Positions 4,380-13,081 of a stretch of DNA of 13,081 nt are shown here, one piece after another (positions within the stretch are counted from its first letter, which is position 1; every line of letters begins with the position of its first letter). The DNA is from Candidatus Nitrosocosmicus sp. Its GTDB lineage: Archaea > Thermoproteota > Nitrososphaeria > Nitrososphaerales > Nitrososphaeraceae. The notes beneath the pieces were generated by a model that had not been told where the DNA came from, searched no databases, and was given only the letters and a program-made list of their open reading frames with translations. The stretch is from positions 1-13,081 of the forward strand of contig JBBJMN010000056.1 of assembly GCA_037720485.1 (NCBI GenBank), in the 5' to 3' direction. A program made the translations under genes and the position numbers.

Positions 4380-4706
4380 ATGAATAATAACTTGGAATGG
4401 TGTGAACCTGGTCTTTCCTCATTGGGTGAAATTCGTTCGAATATTGATAAAATAGATAAAGAAATTGTTGTATTGTTGTGCCGACGCGGAGAGCTTGTCA
4501 AGCAAGCTGCAAGGTTTAAGCCTAATCCTGCAAATGTCAAAGATTTAAAAAGGTTGGAGCAAATTATTGAAAAAGTGACCTCGTATGCCAAAGAGATGAA
4601 TTTTGATTCGTTTACCATAGAAAACATATACCGCAATATGATTGAGCAGTTTATACAATTAGAGATGAAAACCTACTCTGATTTAAGGTCCAATTCAAAT
4701 AAATAG
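4380..4706 (+). CDS. Chorismate mutase, AroQ class (stand-alone, 108 aa)
   Basis: Typical AroQ helix-1 pattern LGEIRSNIDKIDKEIVVLLCRRGELVKQAARFK, plus later helices (LKRLEQIIEKV..., IENIYRNMIEQFIQLE). The size matches monofunctional AroQ proteins. The overlapping antisense ORF 4289-4636 is a shadow. Confidence 0.8.
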   Translation: MNNNLEWCEPGLSSLGEIRSNIDKIDKEIVVLLCRRGELVKQAARFKPNPANVKDLKRLEQIIEKVTSYAKEMNFDSFTIENIYRNMIEQFIQLEMKTYSDLRSNSNK

Positions 4707-4967
4707 TCTAAAGATGTGGATAGCTTTTAAAAGTACAAATAAAATTATTTGTTTCTCGTTTTTAATTTTCCAGTTTTTTGGGTTTGACCTCATGGATTTT
4801 ACATGACGCAAACCTAACGCATGCCTTTTTTTGACAGGTATGCCAATTTTTTACTTTATCTTGTTGTTGCTATATGCGTGTGATTTGCTGCAGGCCGGTC
4901 TGGTTTTGTAACCCATATAGCCCAGTTTGGTTTTAAGTTATTTGATAAAATACAAATATTGACTGTC

Positions 4968-4984
4968 TGCTATATGTGTGATAG
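4968..4984 (+). promoter_or_regulatory. Putative TATA box/promoter of the aminotransferase gene (TGCTATATGTGTGAT)
   Basis: The TATA-like core at 4970-4976 is centred about 25 nt upstream of ATG 4998 (spacing for a leaderless mRNA). A near-copy of the element lies 100 nt upstream, at 4868-4884. Confidence 0.35.
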
Positions 4985-4997
4985 GAACTAAATACTG

Positions 4998-6182
4998 ATG
5001 AAAATATCTGAGCGGCTTGGCAGAGTTGAATATGCGATACGTGATATAATATTGCATGCTAGAGAGTATCAGAAAACCGGTAAAAAAATTATATATCTAA
5101 ACATCGGCGATCCCGTAGCTTTTGATTTCAAGACCCCAACGCATATCAAAAACGCTTTAATCGATGCATTGACTCATGATAATGATTATTATACAGATTC
5201 TGAGGGATGGCCTGAATTGCGGCAGTCTATAGTTGAAAAGGAAAGCAAAAAAAAGGGACTGGCCCTTACCCCTGAAGATGTTTTGGTTACAAATGGTGTT
5301 TCCGAAGGATTGGATATGGTAATGGGTTCTATAGTTGAAGATAATGATGAAATACTGCTTCCTGGGCCTTATTACCCTCCCTATGCGTCTTATGCCAAGT
5401 TTTATGGGGGTAACATAAATGAGTTTAAGATCCTAGATGATGGCACACCTGACTTGGATGACTTGAGGAGCAAAATAAATGGCAAATCAAAAGCAATTTG
5501 CTTGATAAATCCCAACAATCCAACTGGAGAGGTTTTTGATCTAAAAAGCTTGAAATCTGTGATTGACATTGCTTCTGAGAATAATCTTTACATTATTTGT
5601 GATGAGATATACGATGGAATAGTTTTTGATGGTGGGTTTTCTGGAATCGGAAAAGTTGCTAAGGATTCTCCTGTGATTCTCCTTAACGGTTTTTCTAAAA
5701 CTTATTCGATGACCGGTTTGCGGTGTGGCTATATTTGCATAAATAACAATTCCCGTCAACTTGACTCCTTGAGGCGCAATATCTTTAAACTAGCAAGAGT
5801 CAGAATTGCCTCAAACTTTCCAGTCCAGATAGCCGCAAATGCAGCGTTAAAAGGCCCTCAAGATCATATTGATGAAATGGTGCAAAAGCTGCGTAAAAGA
5901 CGGGATTTGGTGTTCAAAAGACTCAACGAGTTCAATGGTGTGCATTGCAAGAAACCTAAAGGGGCCTTTTACTTGTTTCCTGAAATCAATCTTTCAAATA
6001 AATGGAAAACCGATTTGGAGTTTGTGATTGACATGCTGAATTCTACCGGTGTTTTGACTGTCCATGGGTCCGGGTTTGGAAATGATGGATCAAAGCATTT
6101 CAGGATTGTGTACCTTCCTGAGGAAAACATGTTGGAAGAGGCTATGGATAAAATCGATCTTTTCCTAAAGCGGGCTCTGTAG
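4998..6182 (+). CDS. Fold-type I (class I/II) PLP-dependent aminotransferase, aspartate/alanine/aromatic type
   Basis: 394 aa with NPNNPTGEVF, CDEIYDG, and SFSKTYSMTGLRCGY (Schiff-base Lys in SFSK). TATA-like CTATATG at 4970-4976 lies about 25 nt upstream of the ATG. Confidence 0.9.
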   Translation: MKISERLGRVEYAIRDIILHAREYQKTGKKIIYLNIGDPVAFDFKTPTHIKNALIDALTHDNDYYTDSEGWPELRQSIVEKESKKKGLALTPEDVLVTNGVSEGLDMVMGSIVEDNDEILLPGPYYPPYASYAKFYGGNINEFKILDDGTPDLDDLRSKINGKSKAICLINPNNPTGEVFDLKSLKSVIDIASENNLYIICDEIYDGIVFDGGFSGIGKVAKDSPVILLNGFSKTYSMTGLRCGYICINNNSRQLDSLRRNIFKLARVRIASNFPVQIAANAALKGPQDHIDEMVQKLRKRRDLVFKRLNEFNGVHCKKPKGAFYLFPEINLSNKWKTDLEFVIDMLNSTGVLTVHGSGFGNDGSKHFRIVYLPEENMLEEAMDKIDLFLKRAL

Positions 6183-6189
6183 ACTGGTT

Positions 6190-6462
6190 TTATTGTATCC
6201 CGTTTTGATAGTTTTTTCTTTTGATTTTTCCAAAATAGATGAGGACAATGCCCATAATTACCATTACAATCACGAATTTCTCATTTGTGATCTCCGAATT
6301 AGTAAAGTTGTCAATAAAAAACTCTATTCCCAACTCTGTGGTTATTAGAATAAGGTTTCTCAAAAAAATAATGGATGCCATCACAATGAACAGAACCCCT
6401 AACGGGAACATCCACTCCTTTCGGCTATTCCTTATTTTTTTGTCTATTCTGTCAAAATCCAT
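6190..6462 (-). CDS. Hypothetical small membrane protein (2 predicted TM helices, 90 aa)
   Basis: ATG start. Basic N-terminus (DKKIRNSRKEW), then two hydrophobic stretches (FPLGVLFIVMASIIFLRNLILI; FVIVMVIMGIVLIYF) and a basic tail. Lies 40 nt downstream of the same-strand oxidoreductase gene. The antisense ORF 6239-6493 looks less protein-like. Confidence 0.5.
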   Translation of the reverse strand: MDFDRIDKKIRNSRKEWMFPLGVLFIVMASIIFLRNLILITTELGIEFFIDNFTNSEITNEKFVIVMVIMGIVLIYFGKIKRKNYQNGIQ

Positions 6463-6502
6463 TTCAAAACCAGTTGTCGTTTTTTTGTATTAAAGGGTTG
6501 TC

Positions 6503-7177
6503 TTATACCAGTTTTATGCCCGGGTGCTTGATCTTGTTTTGTTTTGACGCGTTAAGTATCATTGGAGTCATCACTTCTGCCTGATATGACAGGGATAGGG
6601 GGCCAAGAAAAATTGACCTGAGCCCCTCAATTTCTTTTATTAGGCTGTTAACGACAGAAAGGTTTTCTTTATTGTCGGTACACACAAAGGTGTCTGCATT
6701 TAAGGGCATATTTGGGTTCTTTAGCTTTATTTCTGAAATTGTGTGAAAGGCAGATACAATTTTGTTACGGTTTGGGAGGTTTTCCGCAACCAACACCGCG
6801 GCAGATTTTTTTCCTTCTTCAATAGGTATGTAATAAAAACCGCTCTCATTTCTTCCCATGGGAACTATGGGCGAGATTATTACGCAATTGTCATTAATGG
6901 TGTTTGAGATGTCTTTGCACGTTCCAATTATGTTGTCGTAAGGAATGGAAAGAATTAAAACGTCACTTTCTTTCGATACGGATATGTTATCATTACCCGA
7001 TATAGTGCCATTTAGTTTGTCTGCACACGCGCCCTTAATGTAGTTTAGGTTGTCTTCAGCAGCTTTTTCTGCCTTTTGTTTGTCCCTAGATCCTATCAAA
7101 ACATTGTGGTTGAGGCACCACCTTTGGACAAAACCTTCCCCCATACCGCCAGTTCCGCCAATAATTCCGATTTTCAT
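6503..7177 (-). CDS. npdG: NADPH-dependent F420 reductase-like oxidoreductase (NADP oxidoreductase, coenzyme F420-dependent family)
   Basis: N-terminal Rossmann signature MKIGIIGGTGGMGEGF...VLIGSRDKQKAEKAAED, as in NpdG/Fno-type enzymes. I prefer ATG at 7177, which puts the GxGxxG motif at the N-terminus, over the track start at 7216. Confidence 0.7.
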   Translation of the reverse strand: MKIGIIGGTGGMGEGFVQRWCLNHNVLIGSRDKQKAEKAAEDNLNYIKGACADKLNGTISGNDNISVSKESDVLILSIPYDNIIGTCKDISNTINDNCVIISPIVPMGRNESGFYYIPIEEGKKSAAVLVAENLPNRNKIVSAFHTISEIKLKNPNMPLNADTFVCTDNKENLSVVNSLIKEIEGLRSIFLGPLSLSYQAEVMTPMILNASKQNKIKHPGIKLV

Positions 7178-7263
7178 ACTGATTGTGTCAATTAACTTGT
7201 TAGGTTTTAAATACATTTATGATCCAAACAGAGGGTGTTTTGAGGTCAATCCAATCGTTTAAT

Positions 7264-7277
7264 ATTAATATAATTTT
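7264..7277 (+). promoter_or_regulatory. Putative TATA box of the histidine phosphatase gene
   Basis: ATTAATATAATTTT, centred about 27 nt upstream of ATG 7297. Confidence 0.3.
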
Positions 7278-7296
7278 GATTTATTCTTGTTAAGTT

Positions 7297-7929
7297 ATGT
7301 CACTTATCATATTTATGAGGCATGGTCAAGCTAATAACAACGTAAAAAAACTTTTAGTTGGCAGAAATCTCGAGTCCCATTTGACTGATTTGGGGCGAGA
7401 ACAGGTTAAGCACACGGCTGGAATTCTGTCGACCATTGATATCCAAAAGATTTATTCAAGTCCCGTCATAAGAACGGTAGAGACTGCCGAAATTGTTTCC
7501 AATATTGTTAATGTGCCTTTTGATACGGATGAGCGACTGTTTGAGATAGAGTTAGGCAAACTTGTGGGCATGTATTATGATGATTTGATAAATACCCATG
7601 GCGATCTTTTTGTGAAGTTTTACAGTGACAATGATGACGACAATTCCCTTTTGGAATTTGAAGTTGAGTCGTTTGGCGCAGTGAAAAAAAGGGTATCCGA
7701 GTTATTAAGGGAAATAACAGCAAAACACAAAAACGAAAATGTTCTTCTTGTATCCCATTTGGACCCAATCAAGGCTGCCATTTCACTTGTAATGAATCTA
7801 AAACCCTCTTCAGTGTATAGCATTCAGGTGCCAAACGCCTCGCTGAATATATTTAAGAATGTCAATAACATTGTTTCGCTATGCGGAATAAACATAATGG
7901 ATATACGCAGATTCCTGCTGGAATATTGA
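7297..7929 (+). CDS. Histidine phosphatase superfamily protein (phosphoglycerate mutase-like, branch 1)
   Basis: N-terminal catalytic RHG motif (IIFMRHGQANNN), SSPVIRTVETAEI, and a C-terminal second catalytic His (LLVSHLDPIKA). TATA-like AATATAAT at 7267-7274 lies about 27 nt upstream of the ATG. Confidence 0.8.
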   Translation: MSLIIFMRHGQANNNVKKLLVGRNLESHLTDLGREQVKHTAGILSTIDIQKIYSSPVIRTVETAEIVSNIVNVPFDTDERLFEIELGKLVGMYYDDLINTHGDLFVKFYSDNDDDNSLLEFEVESFGAVKKRVSELLREITAKHKNENVLLVSHLDPIKAAISLVMNLKPSSVYSIQVPNASLNIFKNVNNIVSLCGINIMDIRRFLLEY

Positions 7930-7999: not shown

Positions 8000-8015
8000 T
8001 TAAATTAGTATAAAG
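8000..8015 (+). promoter_or_regulatory. Putative BRE/TATA region of the subunit II transcription unit
   Basis: AAAAACC-TTAAATTAGTATAAAG. The TATA-like GTATAAAG at 8008-8015 lies about 37 nt upstream of TTG 8049, implying a short leader containing GGGAG. Confidence 0.3.
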
Positions 8016-8048
8016 TTAACCAAACCGCAGAGAGTGAAATAAGGGAGA

Positions 8049-8324
8049 TTGGCTTATTCCTATAATAAAATCCTGATTTTTTTTATTTTGGCTTCTGTAA
8101 CAGTCCTTGGTCTGCAAAGTGTCATTCAAATAGTGCAAGCTCAAGAGGAGGGTGGCGAGATTGTCATAAGGCGAGTAGCAATTTGGGATTTATTTTATAG
8201 ATTGATGGTTGTTGCCTTTGGTGTAGGAGCTGTGGTTCAGGGTGTACAGATATATGCAACGTGGAGATTCAGGGAATCTCATCCCCGATTTAAGGCTTCT
8301 GGCAATTTAGGAGGCACCAAGTAA
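8049..8324 (+). CDS. Detached N-terminal module of heme-copper oxidase subunit II (signal-peptide-like segment + TM1 + start of cytoplasmic loop)
   Basis: 91 aa, TTG start. Hydrophobic N-terminus ending VQAQEE, then a TM helix (LFYRLMVVAFGVGAVVQGVQIYA) followed by WRFRES. This resembles the canonical post-TM1 CoxII motif as I recall it (B. subtilis CtaC ...YVIVRFRRS). Its stop overlaps the next gene's ATG (TAATG, 8322-8326). Confidence 0.55.
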   Translation: MAYSYNKILIFFILASVTVLGLQSVIQIVQAQEEGGEIVIRRVAIWDLFYRLMVVAFGVGAVVQGVQIYATWRFRESHPRFKASGNLGGTK

Positions 8325-9286
8325 TGGGTCACAGTACCCCTGAATGGGCATTTATTGTTGTTGTAATTGCTTTGCTGATTTATGTGGGTGCGGAATCATG
8401 GAGGGTAGAGCACACACTAGAGTTTGCACCCCCCAACTCCGAAACGGTTAGAGTCATAGGCCAGCAATGGTTTTGGTCCTTTGAGCATGCTGATGGAACA
8501 AAAGAGGTAAATGAGCTTCACCTAAAAACCGACATACCCTATAGGTTTGAAATAGTTTCTAATGATGTTGTTCATGATTTTGCAGTTCCCGATTTCGCAA
8601 TTCTTATGGATGCAGTTCCGGGAAGGGTAAACACGGTATGGAACGTATTTGATGTGCCTGGGGAATATCTTGTGGAATGCAGGGAATATTGCGGCCAATT
8701 GCATCAGGATATGAGGGCAAGACTGTTTGTTGAGCCAAACGAGGGTTCAGGCCCAGTACCAATGAATGGTACGGTGCAGCAACAAAGTGAAGCACCAACT
8801 GTATCCAGTGGCACAGGAACTGCTGGGGTTATAGCACCCGGTGGAACAGGTGAAGTTACTCAAGGAACCGGAACAGCTAGGTTAGTTGAACCGGGTCCAC
8901 TAACACAAAATACTACTACCACCCCTGCACCAGCTGCCAACGCAACCAATGCAACCGGCACTACCAATGCAACTAGTTCTGCTGCTGCACCCGGTGCAAC
9001 ATTATCCATTCCTGCAGGCGCCGCAACGCCCGGAAACCCGCCATATACTCCAACAGAGTTGTCGGTTAAGAAGGGGGATGTAGTAAATGTGGTAAATGAT
9101 GACAATGCCCCACATACTGCGACTAGCGGCAATGGACCTGAAGATGCCGGTAAGGCATTTGACACAAGTCTAATAATGCCAGGAGCGTCTGCAACAATAG
9201 ACACATCAACTATGGAGGCAGGTGAGTATCCTTACCATTGTACAGTCCATCCATTCATGAAAGGAACACTCACTGTTACTGCATAA
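8324..9286 (+). CDS. coxB: Heme-copper oxidase subunit II (TM2 + CuA cupredoxin) fused to a C-terminal amicyanin-like type-1 copper domain
   Basis: TM helix (WAFIVVVIALLIYVG), the CoxII hallmark GQQWFWSFEH, CuA ligands H84 (VVHDFAVPDF) and C119-x-E-x-C123-G-x-x-H127-x-x-M130 (CREYCGQLHQDM, nt 8678-8713). Low-complexity linker at aa 138-228. C-terminal cupredoxin with H264 (NAPHTATSG) and C306-x2-H309-x2-M312 (YHCTVHPFMKG), matching the amicyanin loop CTPHPFM as I recall it. Confidence 0.9.
   Translation: MGHSTPEWAFIVVVIALLIYVGAESWRVEHTLEFAPPNSETVRVIGQQWFWSFEHADGTKEVNELHLKTDIPYRFEIVSNDVVHDFAVPDFAILMDAVPGRVNTVWNVFDVPGEYLVECREYCGQLHQDMRARLFVEPNEGSGPVPMNGTVQQQSEAPTVSSGTGTAGVIAPGGTGEVTQGTGTARLVEPGPLTQNTTTTPAPAANATNATGTTNATSSAAAPGATLSIPAGAATPGNPPYTPTELSVKKGDVVNVVNDDNAPHTATSGNGPEDAGKAFDTSLIMPGASATIDTSTMEAGEYPYHCTVHPFMKGTLTVTA
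8735..9007 (+). other. Low-complexity Thr/Ala/Gly/Pro/Asn-rich inter-domain linker inside coxB, with clustered N-x-T sequons
   Basis: aa 138-228: PNEGSGPVPMNGTVQQQSEAPTVSSGTGTAGVIAPGGTGEVTQGTGTARLVEPGPLTQNTTTTPAPAANATNATGTTNATSSAAAPGATLS. It contains five N-x-T sequons (NGT, NTT, NAT x3) and an internal GTGTA...TQ duplication. Confidence 0.8.
9011..9286 (+). repeat. Copy A of the duplicated cupredoxin-domain coding segment (pairs with 11344-11619)
   Basis: Codon-by-codon hand alignment over 276 nt: about 45 mismatches (about 84% nt identity), 9 of 91 residues different. About 48% GC by hand count. Confidence 0.9.
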
Positions 9287-9307
9287 TCGTTTGTCCACAA
9301 CTTCTAA

Positions 9308-9343
9308 TTTTTTATTGATGTAGTATATTTTTATATTTTTTTT
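9308..9343 (+). terminator. Cluster of oligo-T tracts (T6, T5, T8) after coxB
   Basis: T6 at 9308-9313, T5 at 9328-9332 and T8 at 9336-9343, starting 22 nt after the coxB stop. Confidence 0.45.
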
Positions 9344-9485
9344 ATAATTTATAACCTGTATTATTGTTATATTAAAACATGTTTTATTACTTTTACAGAT
9401 GTGCTTATTGCATTATGGAAAAGAAAATATCTCTTTAACAATTTATCAAGTGATGAATTGGGATTATTTTGCTTAATCCAAATGC

Positions 9486-9519
9486 TTTTATAGACTTTAT
9501 TGAAAATATGGAATATAAG
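9486..9519 (+). promoter_or_regulatory. Two candidate TATA boxes upstream of coxA (TTTTATAG 9486-9493; AATATAAG 9512-9519)
   Basis: AT-rich 250-bp spacer. These boxes are centred about 47 and about 21 nt upstream of TTG 9537. Confidence 0.3.
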
Positions 9520-9536
9520 GGTGTTATACTAAAAAA

Positions 9537-11069
9537 TTGGTACTAGAATTAAAAAAGCCCAGGCCGATTTGGGAAATAATATTTTCTACTCACCATACTG
9601 ACATAGGGTTACTGTACATTATTACATCAATTGTAGCTTTATTTGCGGGTGGTGGATTGGCAATGGCAATAAGAGCAGAATTGTTTTTGCCGGGTATTCA
9701 GATATTTACCGGGCAGGAGGATTTCGCAAGATTCTTTACTATGCATGGTACCACAATGTTGTTTTTGTGGGCAATACCATTTGCGGCAGGGGTTGGTAAT
9801 TATTTAATTCCAATCATGGTCAGGTACAAAGATATGGCGTGGCCAAAGCTAAATGCTGTTGCATTTTGGATGATACCTCCAAGCATTTTTCTGCTTTGGG
9901 GGGGCTTTTCAGATACCGGTTGGACGGCCTATCCTCCATATTCCATATTAAAGGCACCTGCCCCAGCTGCCGATATGTGGATATTTGCACTTACGTTTCT
10001 TGGATTATCTTCTTTACTGGGTGCAGTAAACTTTGTGGTGACTATATTGAAGATGAAACATCCTGATTTGCCCTTAATGAAGATGTCTCTATTCTCATGG
10101 GCAACATTGAGTACTTCGCTTATGATCATCGTGGCTATACCGACTTTTGCTGCTGCTCTGGTCATGCTAACAACCGATAGGTTGGGTGTGACTGGATTCT
10201 TCAACGCTGAGATGGGGGGTGATCCTATAGCCTATCAGCACCTGTTTTGGTTTACATTCCATCCAGAGGTTTACATATTCATTCTGCCTGCCATAGGGAT
10301 GCTGTATGAATTGATTCCAACATTCTCAAGGAAGCCTATATTTAGCTATTACTCGGGTGTGATAGCACTGGTGCTGATAGCGGTTATAGGATTTGGATCC
10401 TGGGCCCATCACATGTTCGCCACGGGTATGAGTTTTACCGAAAAGACTGTGTTCATGGTTGCAACATTGGCAGCAGTTCCATCATCGGCTATGCACGTGT
10501 TTAACTTTTTGGCGACAATGTGGGGAGGCAGAATCAAATTTGCTGCGCCAATGCTGTTTGGGTCTGCCGCCATAATGCTGTTTTACGCATCGGGAGCAGG
10601 AGGTGTTGTCAACACTGCACTTCCACTGGACTTTTTAACCCATGATAGTTATTGGGTTGTGGGCCACTTCCACCTGCTGCTGATGGGAACCATTTCAATG
10701 ACGTTTACGGGATTCATCTACTATCTGTTTCCGTTGATAACTGGAAGGATGTATAACCAAAAACAGGCAAAGATTCATTTCGTCATTGCATTTATTGGGG
10801 TAATAATGGTATTCATTACCCAGCACATACTGGGTCTCTATGGCATGCCAAGACGAGTTATTGATTATTTGCCAATAGATGAATTGGTGTTGATGAACCA
10901 AATAGCGTCAGTTGGTGCCTTTATGGTTGGGGCGTCCTATGTGCTGTTTGTATATAACTTGGTAAAATCAGCAATGTTTGGTAAGATTGCGGATACAAGG
11001 GATCCATTTGAACTAGGAAAGGGAGTGGAGTATTATTATGACTACGCACGACGAGACCCACATCATTAG
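9537..11069 (+). CDS. coxA: Heme-copper oxidase subunit I (A-type-like)
   Basis: 510 aa, about 12 TM helices. Low-spin heme His in FTMHGTTMLF. HPEVY (10260-10274) carries CuB His, the cross-link Tyr and the A1-type Glu. WAHHMF supplies the CuB His pair (10407-10412). GHFHLL supplies His ligands to both hemes (10665-10673). D-channel-like GNYLIP...KDMAWPKLN. TTG at 9537 is the only start available after the in-frame TAA at 9516-9518 and before the conserved N-terminus. Confidence 0.95.
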   Translation: MVLELKKPRPIWEIIFSTHHTDIGLLYIITSIVALFAGGGLAMAIRAELFLPGIQIFTGQEDFARFFTMHGTTMLFLWAIPFAAGVGNYLIPIMVRYKDMAWPKLNAVAFWMIPPSIFLLWGGFSDTGWTAYPPYSILKAPAPAADMWIFALTFLGLSSLLGAVNFVVTILKMKHPDLPLMKMSLFSWATLSTSLMIIVAIPTFAAALVMLTTDRLGVTGFFNAEMGGDPIAYQHLFWFTFHPEVYIFILPAIGMLYELIPTFSRKPIFSYYSGVIALVLIAVIGFGSWAHHMFATGMSFTEKTVFMVATLAAVPSSAMHVFNFLATMWGGRIKFAAPMLFGSAAIMLFYASGAGGVVNTALPLDFLTHDSYWVVGHFHLLLMGTISMTFTGFIYYLFPLITGRMYNQKQAKIHFVIAFIGVIMVFITQHILGLYGMPRRVIDYLPIDELVLMNQIASVGAFMVGASYVLFVYNLVKSAMFGKIADTRDPFELGKGVEYYYDYARRDPHH

Positions 11070-11130
11070 AGATAAGAAAGGGGTGTAGAGTATTATTATG
11101 ACAACACACGATGAGGACCACATCATTAGA
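11011..11130 (+). repeat. Tandem direct repeat, period exactly 60 nt, spanning the coxA 3' end, the intergenic spacer and the start of the cupredoxin gene
   Basis: 11021-11070 (GGGAGTGGAGTATTATTATGACTACGCACGACGAGACCCACATCATTAGA) against 11081-11130 (GGGTGTAGAGTATTATTATGACAACACACGATGAGGACCACATCATTAGA): 43/50 identical by hand count. The preceding 10 nt are weakly similar. Confidence 0.85.
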
Positions 11131-11619
11131 ACATCGCCCAGACGATTCCTGAAGGGATTAGCTCTTATTTTAGTCCCTATGACTATCTTGGGCTATTTTA
11201 CAATTACCTATTGGGACTTTACGGCAAGCTATCCACCACCTGTATCCTCTCCGCCCCCTGCTCCTCCAGTAGAAGAGACTACTGGAGGAGCAGGTATCTC
11301 TGCTGCTCCTGCTACGACGGCAACTGGACCGACAATAACTGTACCTGCAGGTGCCGCGACCCCAGGAAACCCGCCCTATACCCCAACAGAGCTGTCGGTT
11401 AAGAAGGGTGAAACAGTTACGGTTGTAAACAATGACAATGCGCCACACACCGCAACCAGTGGCAATGGTCCGGAGGATGCCGGTCAGGCATTTGACACAA
11501 GTCTCATAATGGCTGGGGCATCTGGGACAATAGACACGTCCACTATAGAGGCCGGTGAGTATCCTTTCCATTGTACAGTCCATCCGTTCATGAAAGGAAC
11601 ACTCACCGTTACGGCGTGA
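11098..11619 (+). CDS. Membrane-anchored amicyanin/plastocyanin-like type-1 (blue) copper protein, paralogous to the CoxII C-terminal domain
   Basis: 173 aa. Charged N-terminus, one TM helix (GLALILVPMTILGYFTITYW), a Pro/Thr/Ala-rich linker (YPPPVSSPPPAPPVEETTGGAG...), and a cupredoxin domain with H (NAPHTATSG) and C-x2-H-x2-M (FHCTVHPFMKG). The last 91 aa differ at only 9 positions from coxB aa 230-320. Confidence 0.85.
   Translation: MTTHDEDHIIRTSPRRFLKGLALILVPMTILGYFTITYWDFTASYPPPVSSPPPAPPVEETTGGAGISAAPATTATGPTITVPAGAATPGNPPYTPTELSVKKGETVTVVNNDNAPHTATSGNGPEDAGQAFDTSLIMAGASGTIDTSTIEAGEYPFHCTVHPFMKGTLTVTA
11344..11619 (+). repeat. Copy B of the duplicated cupredoxin-domain coding segment (pairs with 9011-9286)
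   Basis: Same alignment as copy A. About 54% GC by hand count, with more G/C-ending codons than copy A. Confidence 0.9.
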
Positions 11620-11635
11620 CTCGTTGACCCAAACC

Positions 11636-11656
11636 TTTTTTCTTTACTCTGTTTTT
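11636..11656 (+). terminator. Oligo-T tracts (T6, T5) after the anchored cupredoxin gene
   Basis: T6 at 11636-11641 and T5 at 11652-11656, 17 nt after the TGA at 11617-11619. Confidence 0.45.
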
Positions 11657-11658
11657 AG

Positions 11659-11670
11659 ATAAAAATAAAT
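11659..11670 (+). promoter_or_regulatory. Putative TATA box of the ctaA unit (ATAAAAATAAAT)
   Basis: Centred about 26 nt upstream of the decoy ATG at 11692 and about 43 nt upstream of the ctaA ATG at 11708. Confidence 0.3.
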
Positions 11671-11690
11671 TATGCTTAACTTATGTTAGG

Positions 11691-11722
11691 AATGAATTAC
11701 GATAAGAATGAAATACGATAAG
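11691..11722 (+). repeat. Tandem 16-nt duplication containing the ctaA start codon
   Basis: AATGAATTACGATAAG (11691-11706) followed by AATGAAATACGATAAG (11707-11722), 15/16 identical. Each unit carries an ATG (11692 and 11708). Confidence 0.9.
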
Positions 11723-12250
11723 TTTGTTCTTTTGTTCTCTATTGTTACACTATGTGTATTGTTTGGCTTGATGTTTATGGGTGGCTATGTTAGTGCCAGT
11801 GGTGTTGGCTTGTCATGCCCTGACTGGCCACTTTGCCCAAAAGGATTGGCTCCATCGGCTGAATTCCTAATTGAATATGCCCACAGAACCCTTGCTGCCT
11901 CTACAGGGCTTTTGGTTTTAATGACAATGGTTTTTGTGCTTAGAAGCAAAAACTCTATAAAACCTACCAAGGTTTTCTCGATATTTGCTACTATTGTTGT
12001 CTTTGGTCAAATAGCATTGGGCGCTACTGTGATTACTGAGAGATTACATGCCGTTTTAGTGACTGCGCATTTGGGATTGGGGTTGGTGTTATACAGTAGC
12101 CTTATCTTTGTCATTATGAACACATACTATACCAACTTAAGGCTAAAATCATCCTCTGCATCTACATCCATATCATCTGCTCCTGATTCTGACTTCAATG
12201 AGAAAAAACCTTCCGTGGAATACTCTCCAAACAAAACAAGTAATAATTGA
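11708..12250 (+). CDS. ctaA: Compact (4-TM, half-size) heme A synthase, COX15/CtaA family
   Basis: N-terminal TM followed by GVGLSCPDWPLCPKG (the CtaA Cys-pair loop). EYAHRTLAAS (E-x-x-H-R helix-2 motif). Two more TM helices, the last with a conserved His (AVLVTAHLGLGL). Only 4 TM helices plus a ~45-aa Ser-rich tail. Confidence 0.8.
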   Translation: MKYDKFVLLFSIVTLCVLFGLMFMGGYVSASGVGLSCPDWPLCPKGLAPSAEFLIEYAHRTLAASTGLLVLMTMVFVLRSKNSIKPTKVFSIFATIVVFGQIALGATVITERLHAVLVTAHLGLGLVLYSSLIFVIMNTYYTNLRLKSSSASTSISSAPDSDFNEKKPSVEYSPNKTSNN

Positions 12251-12268: not shown

Positions 12269-13081
12269 ATGGTGATTATGAATTTCCCCGTATTTGATTT
12301 TTTTAACATTTCAAAAACAATACTCAAAGAAAGCAATAAATCGGTTTATGTTACTTCTCTAATCCTGTTTTTTCTCTTTTTCTGTTCTCTTTTGGTATTC
12401 CACTCTCCTATTCAATATGCGCAGGGTCATTTTGATCATCTGTCTCACTATAATGGCGGAGGATTTGGCATCAGCGACAAATATTATGTTAACCAACAAC
12501 TGGAACCCACATACACAAAACCAAATGAGTTATCCAAGGTTATGTTCAGCGTTCAGGACAATGCTGGACGTGATGTGCAAAACATTGTCGCTATGGTTGA
12601 AATCTACTCACTCCATGGCGAAAGGGTCTCTGTTTTTCCTTGGTCCCATCTTGACATTGGTGACTTTGGCGTTCCCTTTGTGTTTCCAAAGGCTGGCAGT
12701 TACCATATTGTGCTCAGTGTGTTGAATAGTGGTGTTGACTCAAGCCAGATAATTAACACCGTGCCTCCTGCAAGATCGATTTTAGGTGATAATTCTAATT
12801 GTAACTGTGAAAGGGGTGTGTTTAACGTATCGATAACACAGAACTTTGGCACAATTTTTGTTATGGTTATTTATATTTCAATTTTTCTTGCTGTTTCTGT
12901 TTTGGGTGCTGCTTTGATTTGGATATTTTGGAGCAGAAGAAATAACAAGGCGTTTGACCCACTTTCAAATAACGATTTTGTAAAATATTCTGTTTTGTTT
13001 TTGGCTTTTGGTGCGTCAGTTGTACATCTAGCAGTAGCTCCAGGACACGCTGGCCTAAGGCTCGAGTACAGCCTCTTTTTA
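12269..13081 (+). CDS. Membrane protein of unknown function, 3'-partial (runs off the window); not on the supplied ORF track
   Basis: My own translation of the frame starting at ATG 12269 gives 271 codons with no stop to 13081. An in-frame TGA lies at 12251-12253; GTG alternatives at 12254 and 12257, ATG at 12278. Predicted signal anchor (VYVTSLILFFLFFCSLLVF), possible cleavage at YAQG, His-rich HFDHLSH, a ~130-aa beta-rich domain (VMFSVQDNAGRDV...FVFPKAGSYHIVLSV), C-N-C, then at least 2 TM helices. Starts 18 nt after the ctaA stop. Confidence 0.6.
   Translation, partial: MVIMNFPVFDFFNISKTILKESNKSVYVTSLILFFLFFCSLLVFHSPIQYAQGHFDHLSHYNGGGFGISDKYYVNQQLEPTYTKPNELSKVMFSVQDNAGRDVQNIVAMVEIYSLHGERVSVFPWSHLDIGDFGVPFVFPKAGSYHIVLSVLNSGVDSSQIINTVPPARSILGDNSNCNCERGVFNVSITQNFGTIFVMVIYISIFLAVSVLGAALIWIFWSRRNNKAFDPLSNNDFVKYSVLFLAFGASVVHLAVAPGHAGLRLEYSLFL

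Follow-up and report, generated by a model that had tools for sequence, protein, structure and literature searches.

The 13,081-nt window analysed here (contig JBBJMN010000056.1, Candidatus Nitrosocosmicus sp.) holds at 8049–12250 five co-oriented genes, as given by the list of open reading frames (ORFs), which make up the heme-copper terminal oxidase cluster of a soil ammonia-oxidising archaeon (AOA) with a type-1 copper (T1Cu) module instead of cytochrome c. The module occurs twice, at the C-terminus of subunit II (CoxII, encoded by coxB) and in a separate membrane-anchored cupredoxin. Our best explanation, which we regard as probable when taken as a whole, is that the cluster encodes an aa3-type, proton-pumping oxidase of the A-family in a Nitrosocosmicus-like archaeal host, built as a copper analogue of caa3 oxidase in which two equivalent tethered T1Cu modules would feed CuA in parallel. 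The domains, ligands, division of subunit II, synteny and sequence homogenisation described below were computed.

The type-1 copper modules of the cluster

CoxII contains two complete copper sites. The CuA ligands H84, C119, E121, C123, H127 and M130 follow the H...C-x-E-x-C-x3-H-x2-M pattern of a CuA-type subunit II and are invariant or nearly so across 40 homologues, W49 lies within GQQWFW, and the match to Pfam COX2 reaches 67.4 bits (cut-off 22). The single helix of the chain aligns with the second transmembrane (TM) helix, TM2, of yeast and human COX2, and E7 is the K-pathway entrance Glu. The C-terminal domain holds a T1Cu site (H264, C306, H309 and M312; loop CTVHPFM), each ligand of which has its counterpart in the amicyanin motifs PH and CTPHPFM, where the ligands are H53, C92, H95 and M98. 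It falls in the plastocyanin/azurin family by PF13473 (53.1 bits, cut-off 27) and PF00127 (31.6 bits, cut-off 21.2), and all ligands are aligned in its sequence matches to the Protein Data Bank (PDB) entries 9cck (3.9e-13) and amicyanin (4.8e-09). The His-Cys-His-Met site is invariant or nearly so in the 40 homologues and in all 86 domain copies compared.

The two domains are joined by a low-complexity linker, 71% of which is T, S, A, G or P and which carries all five N-x-S/T sequons of CoxII (N148, N196, N206, N209 and N215); homologous linkers measure 38–90 residues and have 1–6 sequons. The AlphaFold2 model of full-length CoxII, built from 40 sequences (pTM 0.40), supports two beta domains plus a disordered linker, with a helix at residues 6–33, the CuA beta-sandwich at 40–137, a stretch of pLDDT ~30 at 142–223 and a beta domain of pLDDT 70–91 at 224–320. 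By pLDDT, composition and sequons, the ~85-residue linker is probably a disordered, extracytoplasmic, glycosylated tether. A whole-chain Foldseek search with CoxII returned mainly COX2 chains (including chain 2yev_B of a caa3 oxidase), together with two-domain laccases and two-cupredoxin proteins.

The anchored cupredoxin opens with the conserved cytoplasmic motif MTTHDEDHIIRTSPRRFLKG, crosses the membrane with one TM helix and continues through a Pro-rich linker into its own T1Cu domain (ligands H117, C159, H162 and M165), which scores 43.6 bits with PF13473 and 36.9 bits with PF00127, against the cut-offs of 27 and 21.2. The N-terminal pattern MTTxDE..IIRTSPxR..KG, followed by the helix and W...PPxxS, is conserved in both Nitrososphaeraceae and Nitrosopumilaceae. 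Over 95 codons the fused and anchored T1Cu domains of the window are 87% identical in amino acids, 83% in nucleotides and 62% at third positions. Both modules are predicted to face outward, the fused one because it follows the extracytoplasmic CuA domain without a further helix, the anchored one because a basic N-terminus precedes its single helix.

A sequence-only reading of this region had described both copper sites of CoxII, a cupredoxin fold at its C-terminus and an outward orientation of the two T1Cu domains. Every residue it quoted lies at the position given; the fold and the copper ligands are upheld by Pfam, the amicyanin alignment and the AlphaFold2 beta domain; the orientation agrees with the helix order and the basic N-terminus; and the Pfam families that it proposed to search for (COX2, Cupredoxin_1/Copper-bind, COX1 and COX15-CtaA) were all found. 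The second, anchored T1Cu protein that it placed after coxA is present, although ‘almost identical’ is slightly generous for 87% amino-acid identity. Coding frames and ORF scan also agree with its statement that the window encodes neither a heme-c CxxCH protein nor a subunit III: CxxCH is absent from all coding frames of the window, its sole six-frame instance lying in a 54-codon antisense frame inside coxA, and COX3 (subunit III) was not found among the window ORFs scanned.

Table 1. Features of the window, with positions numbered from its first nucleotide.
Feature	Position	Strand	Description
Chorismate mutase	4380–4706		upstream neighbour of the cox cluster
Class I/II aminotransferase	4998–6182		upstream neighbour
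Small membrane ORF	6190–6462	minus	upstream neighbour
F420-type NADP oxidoreductase	6503–7216	minus	upstream neighbour
Histidine phosphatase	7297–7929		upstream neighbour
coxB-N	8049–8324	+	91 aa; signal-peptide-like N-terminus (..VQAQE), one TM helix, basic tail WRFRESHPRFK
coxB	8324–9286	+	320 aa; Pfam COX2 1.4e-18, Cupredoxin_1 3.7e-14, Copper-bind 2.2e-07
coxB residues 1–140	8324–8743	+	E7, TM2 of CoxII, CuA cupredoxin domain with W49
coxB linker, residues 141–225	8744–8998	+	low complexity
300-nt direct repeat, copy 1	8968–9267	+	T1Cu coding block in coxB; repeat family D1, 80% identity
Fused T1Cu domain (residues 226–320) and stop codon	8999–9286	+	
coxB-coxA spacer	9287–9536		250 bp, AT-rich, T-runs just 3' of the coxB stop; read from sequence
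coxA	9537–11069	+	subunit I, 510 aa; Pfam COX1 1.3e-137, 459.6 bits
60-nt tandem duplication	11015–11070 and 11075–11130	+	84% identity; repeat family D2; coxA 3' end and cupredoxin 5' start
Anchored cupredoxin	11098–11619	+	173 aa; Pfam Cupredoxin_1 3.2e-11, Copper-bind 5.2e-09
300-nt direct repeat, copy 2	11301–11600	+	in the anchored cupredoxin gene; repeat family D1
ctaA	11708–12250	+	compact heme A synthase, 180 aa; COX15-CtaA (PF02628) 1.4e-18, 67.5 bits, cut-off 29.9
Uncharacterised membrane protein	12269–13081	+	at least 271 aa, open at window end; no Pfam family

Distribution and homogenisation across lineages

The fusion of CoxII with a cupredoxin is a standing feature of the Nitrososphaeraceae. 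A protein search with CoxII gave 1280 relatives; the best 120 all carry COX2 and 119 of them carry the cupredoxin domain as well, the exception being P0085 (217 aa). The closest genomic matches are metagenome-assembled genomes of Nitrososphaeraceae, with CoxII identities of 87–90%, and the fusion is kept across many species-level lineages. Public annotation names the fused proteins either ‘cupredoxin domain-containing protein’ or ‘cytochrome c oxidase subunit 2’, and no discussion of the fusion itself was found in the literature searched.

The number and placement of the modules vary between lineages. In Nitrosopumilaceae (L078) CoxII is unfused (141 aa) and the anchored protein (322 aa) has two plastocyanin-like domains. 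Nitrososphaera (L075; Nitrososphaera viennensis) likewise has an unfused CoxII (163–165 aa), with an anchored protein of two amicyanin-like domains, proximal and distal, that are ~48% identical. Loci of the L011 type combine a fused CoxII with an anchored two-domain protein, giving three modules in all; the window and Nitrosocosmicus have a fused CoxII and an anchored protein with the distal-type domain only; L070 has an unfused CoxII and an anchored one-domain protein; and in P0084, from a short contig, both domains are fused onto CoxII. When the T1Cu domains are compared, the proximal ones form a clade of their own; between genomes, identities of 57–61% place fused, distal and single domains at the same distance from one another.

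The anchored protein is present in every AOA locus examined, including those of Nitrosopumilaceae and N. viennensis in which CoxII is unfused. Because of this outgroup distribution, the simplest reading of the sequence comparison is that the anchored protein would have come first, with its distal domain then copied onto CoxII. The sequence-only reading had the donor domain built into subunit II and duplicated as an anchored carrier; the direction appears to be the reverse, and in the domain comparison the fused copy falls with the distal domain of the anchored protein.

Two metagenomic CoxII proteins extend the series. In P0084 (418 aa) CoxII ends with a proximal-type and a distal-type T1Cu domain in tandem; P0089 (445 aa, truncated) carries two near-identical T1Cu copies in tandem on CoxII. 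Transfer of the entire ectodomain of the anchored protein onto CoxII is thus possible. The Rosetta-stone pattern of P0084 suggests that the anchored protein works at CoxII. In the Nitrosopumilaceae locus L078, the protein at 8009–8977 has the same anchor motif but plastocyanin-like domains with a longer ligand loop, CTVPGH....M; here the donor domains have been exchanged and the anchor kept.

Within a genome, the fused and downstream copies share 67–100% amino-acid identity (median 93%, 33 genomes), with up to 100% identity in nucleotides and often 90–100% at third positions. Between genomes the fused domains average ~60% amino-acid and ~40% third-position identity. Among the 86 copies, the nearest relative of the fused domain is the other copy of the same genome in 22 of 34 genomes. 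In related genomes the shared DNA tract spans 250–350 nt; it begins no more than ~60 nt from the edge of the domain and runs to the stop codon or slightly past it. The homogenised tract is bounded by the domain, and the linkers lie outside. The pattern points to recurrent gene conversion between direct repeats ~2.3 kb apart, and the lower identity of the window’s pair suggests an older conversion event. Homogenisation is not universal: the copies are 58% identical in Nitrosocosmicus franklandus, 66% in Nitrosocosmicus hydrocola and 67–68% in L007 and L008. No report of gene conversion of T1Cu domains in AOA was found in the literature searched.

Two other origins of the high identities were considered and are disfavoured. 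Bubble-popping in short-read assemblies might lift ~95% identity to 100%, never 60% to at least 90%, and collapse during assembly is countered by the recurrence of homogenisation in contigs of 0.4–1.8 Mb (L006, L011, L017 and L038). Independent recent duplications would have had to insert at one and the same site more than 20 times, which is less parsimonious than gene conversion. In L024 (6529–6813 and 9145–9426) the copies are 99% identical at third positions and 91% in protein, with nearly all differences non-synonymous. Either selection for divergence following a recent conversion or a quirk of the assembly could account for this.

Electron entry at CuA

The placement of the anchored protein can be compared with a published experiment on an orthologous system, the blue-native complexome of N. 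viennensis, which gives intensity profiles over 22 gel slices (PMC10030591, supplementary file 2). In this organism, where CoxII is unfused and the peaks also hold ammonia monooxygenase (AMO), NVIE_027550, the syntenic orthologue of the window’s anchored cupredoxin, follows the profile of CoxB with a Pearson r of 0.995 and a near-constant ratio of 1.6–2.3. The corresponding r is 0.95 for CoxA1 and 0.56–0.59 for an unrelated membrane protein. That NVIE_027550 tracks CoxB supports a fixed subunit over a free carrier, and by analogy suggests that the anchored cupredoxin is most likely a stoichiometric oxidase subunit.

In the parallel arrangement that we favour, one module would be carried at the C-terminus of CoxII by the disordered, probably glycosylated tether of ~85 residues, and the other would be the ectodomain of the single-pass protein encoded right after coxA. 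Both would stand on the outer face of the membrane as equivalent entry points: upstream donors, either associated with complex III or from a soluble blue-copper pool, would reduce each module, and each would pass its electron to CuA near W49, from there to heme a and on to heme a3-CuB. What we infer is how the modules are oriented, which path the electrons take and that both copies are equivalent. The high identity within genomes and the single orthologous type of module are consistent, at the level of sequence, with interchangeable function, and the distal amicyanin-like module is likely the direct donor to CuA.

The closest functional parallel is the caa3 oxidase (Thermus thermophilus 2YEV; Bacillus CtaC), where the C-terminus of subunit II likewise bears a one-electron donor domain, next to CuA; in both sequence and fold, the window’s CuA part has 2yev_B among its best matches. 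CoxII has the redox-active C-terminal extension (residues 226–320) and lacks the CxxCH c-type cytochrome: the caa3 donor is a heme-c cytochrome on a short connection, whereas that of the window is a T1Cu cupredoxin on a disordered linker. Thermus caa3 furthermore fuses subunits I and III, and the locus has no subunit III. The locus thus works like a caa3 oxidase without being a member of that class.

Several points weigh against parallel, equivalent donors. The co-migration data come from N. viennensis, with its unfused CoxII, where CoxB also correlates with AMO subunits, so that the gel peaks contain several complexes. The copies of the cultured N. franklandus and N. hydrocola are just 58–66% identical (87% in the window), which means that equivalence is not universal and that the copies may have different roles. 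The 85-residue tether far exceeds the reach to its own CuA and suits a shuttle as well as a fixed donor. The AlphaFold2 model of CoxII, at pTM 0.40, lacks inter-domain geometry and is uninformative on docking of the T1Cu domain at CuA. To our knowledge, electron-transfer measurements on these proteins do not exist.

Some of these points would also fit a serial relay, which the sequence-only reading had proposed as a two-step route and which we consider unlikely. Here the anchored cupredoxin would be a mobile shuttle from complex III, resembling the membrane-anchored cytochrome c-y or c552, and the cupredoxin tethered to CoxII would be the sole domain to dock on CuA. Two copies on different tethers do exist, the 58–66% identity in cultured Nitrosocosmicus would permit different potentials and surfaces, and the tandem T1Cu domains of the ancestral anchored protein, at ~48% identity, resemble a short wire. 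However, the relay finds no specific support in the comparison. Modules of one orthologous type that are near-identical in many genomes would offer neither a driving force nor a distinct docking surface; N. viennensis and the Nitrosopumilaceae have no fused copy, and their anchored protein must still reach CuA; and one, two or three modules suffice in related genomes. The constant ratio at which NVIE_027550 co-migrates with CoxB is that of a subunit and unlike a free shuttle, and the N-terminal anchor motif is conserved as in a fixed subunit.

The remaining readings rank below both the parallel donors and the relay. The fused module might be a long-reach collector that takes electrons from periplasmic hydroxylamine- or NO-oxidising enzymes, or feeds NirK-type enzymes, thereby bypassing or supplementing complex III and leaving routine donation to the anchored copy. 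A disordered, sequon-rich linker of 38–90 residues, the same module type on an AOA multicopper oxidase (9cck) and the co-migration of CoxB with AMO in blue-native gels would suit such a role. Whole genera of the same metabolism do without the fusion, however, and linker length is not conserved; we regard this reading as improbable. Least credible of all, and very improbable, is that the extra cupredoxins are not donors and serve instead as copper stores or chaperones for the assembly of CuA and CuB, a role that would suit their place beside ctaA, or that the fused copy is a near-neutral by-product of repeat recombination. The cluster does include the assembly gene ctaA and a His-rich exported uncharacterised protein, and genomes differ in carrying one to three modules, but the nearly invariant His-Cys-His-Met site is the signature of an electron-transfer cupredoxin, unlike known CuA chaperones, and the fusion has been retained in many species-level lineages.

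Composition of the cluster and related systems

Subunit II begins in a separate ORF. The ORF at 8049–8324 (coxB-N) lay within the range of the sequence-only reading and was not described there; its stop overlaps the coxB start (TAATG). CoxII has one helix in place of the two N-terminal helices usual in a single subunit II polypeptide. On its own, coxB-N matches nothing in Pfam or NCBIfam, and coxB-N rejoined to CoxII gives no Pfam COX2_TM match either. Only the NCBIfam CoxB profile, TIGR02866, revealed continuity: coxB alone covers profile positions 57–195 with 107.5 bits, and mature coxB-N joined to CoxII gives one continuous match over positions 9–195 with 130.1 bits, both below the equivalog cut-off of 147.7. 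A Nitrososphaera pair had the same outcome. Judged by this continuity, coxB-N is the split-off first TM helix of CoxII, the polypeptide being interrupted in the cytoplasmic loop, after WRFRESHP... and before ...GHSTPEW. Upstream of coxB, 79 of 80 related loci have a homologue, among them those of Nitrosopumilaceae; in the exception, L071, the contig begins just upstream of coxB. The N. viennensis orthologue, NVIE_027520 (89 aa), was detected in published proteomics. The arrangement recalls subunit IIa of the Thermus thermophilus ba3 oxidase, a separate one-helix polypeptide that replaces the first TM helix of subunit II; coxB-N differs in being still homologous to the canonical TM1 of CoxII and in having a signal-peptide-like N-terminus.

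CoxI has the six His metal ligands, the helix-VI HPEVY motif with the D-pathway Glu and the cross-linked Tyr, and the Asp at the entrance of the D-pathway that characterise an A1-type subunit I (H70, D99, H242-P-E244-V-Y246, H291/H292, H377/H379), and its best PDB matches are actinobacterial and mitochondrial aa3 subunits I. It lacks the A1-type K-pathway Lys motif P-T-G-x-K-x-F. His320 (10494–10496), within a motif at residues 317–323, occupies the Lys position, in VPSSAMHVFNF as against VPTG-IKFFNW in the best PDB match, with a one-residue insertion, and His stands there in all 43 AOA CoxI sequences from related loci. The score with TIGR02891, 515 bits, is under the cut-off of 670.75.

The product of ctaA has the motifs C37-x5-C43, E56-x2-H59-R, H114 and H121 and four hydrophobic segments, as in the compact four-helix class described for archaeal CtaA (PMC8239418). 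The gene that follows encodes a protein whose signal peptide leads into a His-rich mature N-terminus (HFDHLSHY); it further has a beta-rich ectodomain, helices at the C-terminus and the motif CNCERG. Homologues of at least 37% identity lie inside the cox cluster in 26 related loci, where they follow ctaA or stand between the phosphatase gene and the small ORF (two further matches are weak, 23–25%), and the gene is syntenic with NVIE_027570 of N. viennensis. The product may be a copper-handling or assembly factor.

The order of the cluster is that of AOA complex IV: small ORF, coxB, coxA, anchored blue-copper protein and ctaA, without coxC or cytochrome c. It is kept in related loci and matches N. 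franklandus and N. viennensis, as the synteny comparison called for by the sequence-only reading confirms. In N. franklandus C13 (LR216287.1) and N. hydrocola the gene order is identical from chorismate mutase through ctaA to the unknown membrane protein, with a CoxII fusion of 322–326 aa (63–64% identical to that of the window), a CoxI of 510 aa and an anchored single-domain cupredoxin of 179–180 aa. N. viennensis (NVIE_027520–NVIE_027570) resembles the window in its flanks, split CoxII, CoxA1, anchor motif, compact CtaA and downstream unknown protein; it differs in its unfused CoxB (163 aa) and in an anchored protein with two different T1Cu domains (282–284 aa). The upstream genes (4380–7929) stand in the same order beside the cox cluster in N. 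franklandus and partly so in N. viennensis, and the histidine phosphatase gene adjoins the cluster in most related loci.

In related loci the anchored-protein gene abuts or overlaps the coxA stop; the overlap is ~29–32 nt in L002, L003, L083 and L084, and the two genes overlap in N. franklandus and N. hydrocola, whereas in the window they are separated by the 60-nt tandem duplication. As a result of the duplication, the coxA 3' end contains 16 dead codons copied from the cupredoxin start. To judge from its composition, the coxB-coxA spacer may contain a terminator plus an independent coxA promoter, and the two genes may be distinct transcription units; the corresponding gap in relatives ranges from ~90 to ~900 bp (e.g. 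L008). A promoter and terminator scan of the window found sites no more often than in shuffled sequence, with a bacterial consensus that is uninformative on archaeal signals, and Rfam gave no RNA family anywhere in the window.

Other systems share single elements of this design. The Halobacterium halocyanin-CbaD fusion (OE_4073R; halocyanin is a donor to haloarchaeal oxidases, PMC8305020) also attaches a blue-copper protein, in place of cytochrome c, to a terminal-oxidase subunit; there, however, an uncharacterised fusion joins another cupredoxin subfamily to the small CbaD of a ba3-type oxidase. The closest solved relative of the T1Cu module, the multicopper oxidase of Nitrosopumilus maritimus (9CCK), again has the module as a C-terminal add-on to a copper redox enzyme, although its host is NirK-like and not a heme-copper oxidase. 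Together these two fusions make the tethering of a cupredoxin donor to its acceptor enzyme a recurring archaeal solution. Amicyanin of Paracoccus denitrificans, the best characterised PDB relative, shares the fold and the C-x2-H-x2-M loop (CTPHPFM, CTVHPFM in the window); it is soluble and periplasmic and serves the methylamine dehydrogenase pathway, unlike the tethered domains of the window, which reach 36.8 (fused) and 39.3 bits against the TIGR02657 amicyanin cut-off of 110.2. There are no mau genes in the window, and its T1Cu domains are amicyanin-like in ligand loop and fold only. The SoxM supercomplex of Sulfolobus acidocaldarius is another oxidase without cytochrome c, in which membrane-bound sulfocyanin (SoxE) is thought to feed CuA. 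There, sulfocyanin is a separate subunit of a supercomplex of bc1 analogue and oxidase, subunits I and III are fused, and subunit II carries no donor.

The copper-donor design is already known for AOA, and the locus adds no new principle: published work describes complex IV of these organisms as a copper oxidase that depends on plastocyanin and lacks cytochrome c (PMC4084955, PMC7785015) as well as subunit III (PMC7300363), which bears out the remark in the sequence-only reading that the theme was known at annotation level. The points that go beyond that account, namely the split subunit II, the reversed polarity, the lineage-dependent homogenisation, the subunit-like anchored protein and the K-pathway His, hold moderate interest for specialists, and the way the modules are homogenised at the DNA level makes a neat example of concerted evolution within a respiratory operon. 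It is conceivable, though we hold this only tentatively, that AOA oxidases form a subclass of their own within the A-family, with a split subunit II, His for the K-pathway Lys, no subunit III and all donors tethered, and that in Nitrososphaeraceae the module sits on two tethers and is kept interchangeable by recurrent gene conversion. If so, the last step of the chain would run without a freely diffusing carrier, and the glycosylated tether would swing its module between upstream donors and CuA.

Ammonia-oxidising archaea perform a large share of global nitrification, and we know of no copper-based respiratory component downstream of their quinone pool that has been characterised biochemically. 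Cultured Nitrosocosmicus and N. viennensis provide a natural ‘fused’ and a natural ‘unfused’ version of the same enzyme, respectively, and the comparative picture sharpens the targets within it: the distal module as the likely donor to CuA and the anchored protein as a probable subunit of the oxidase.

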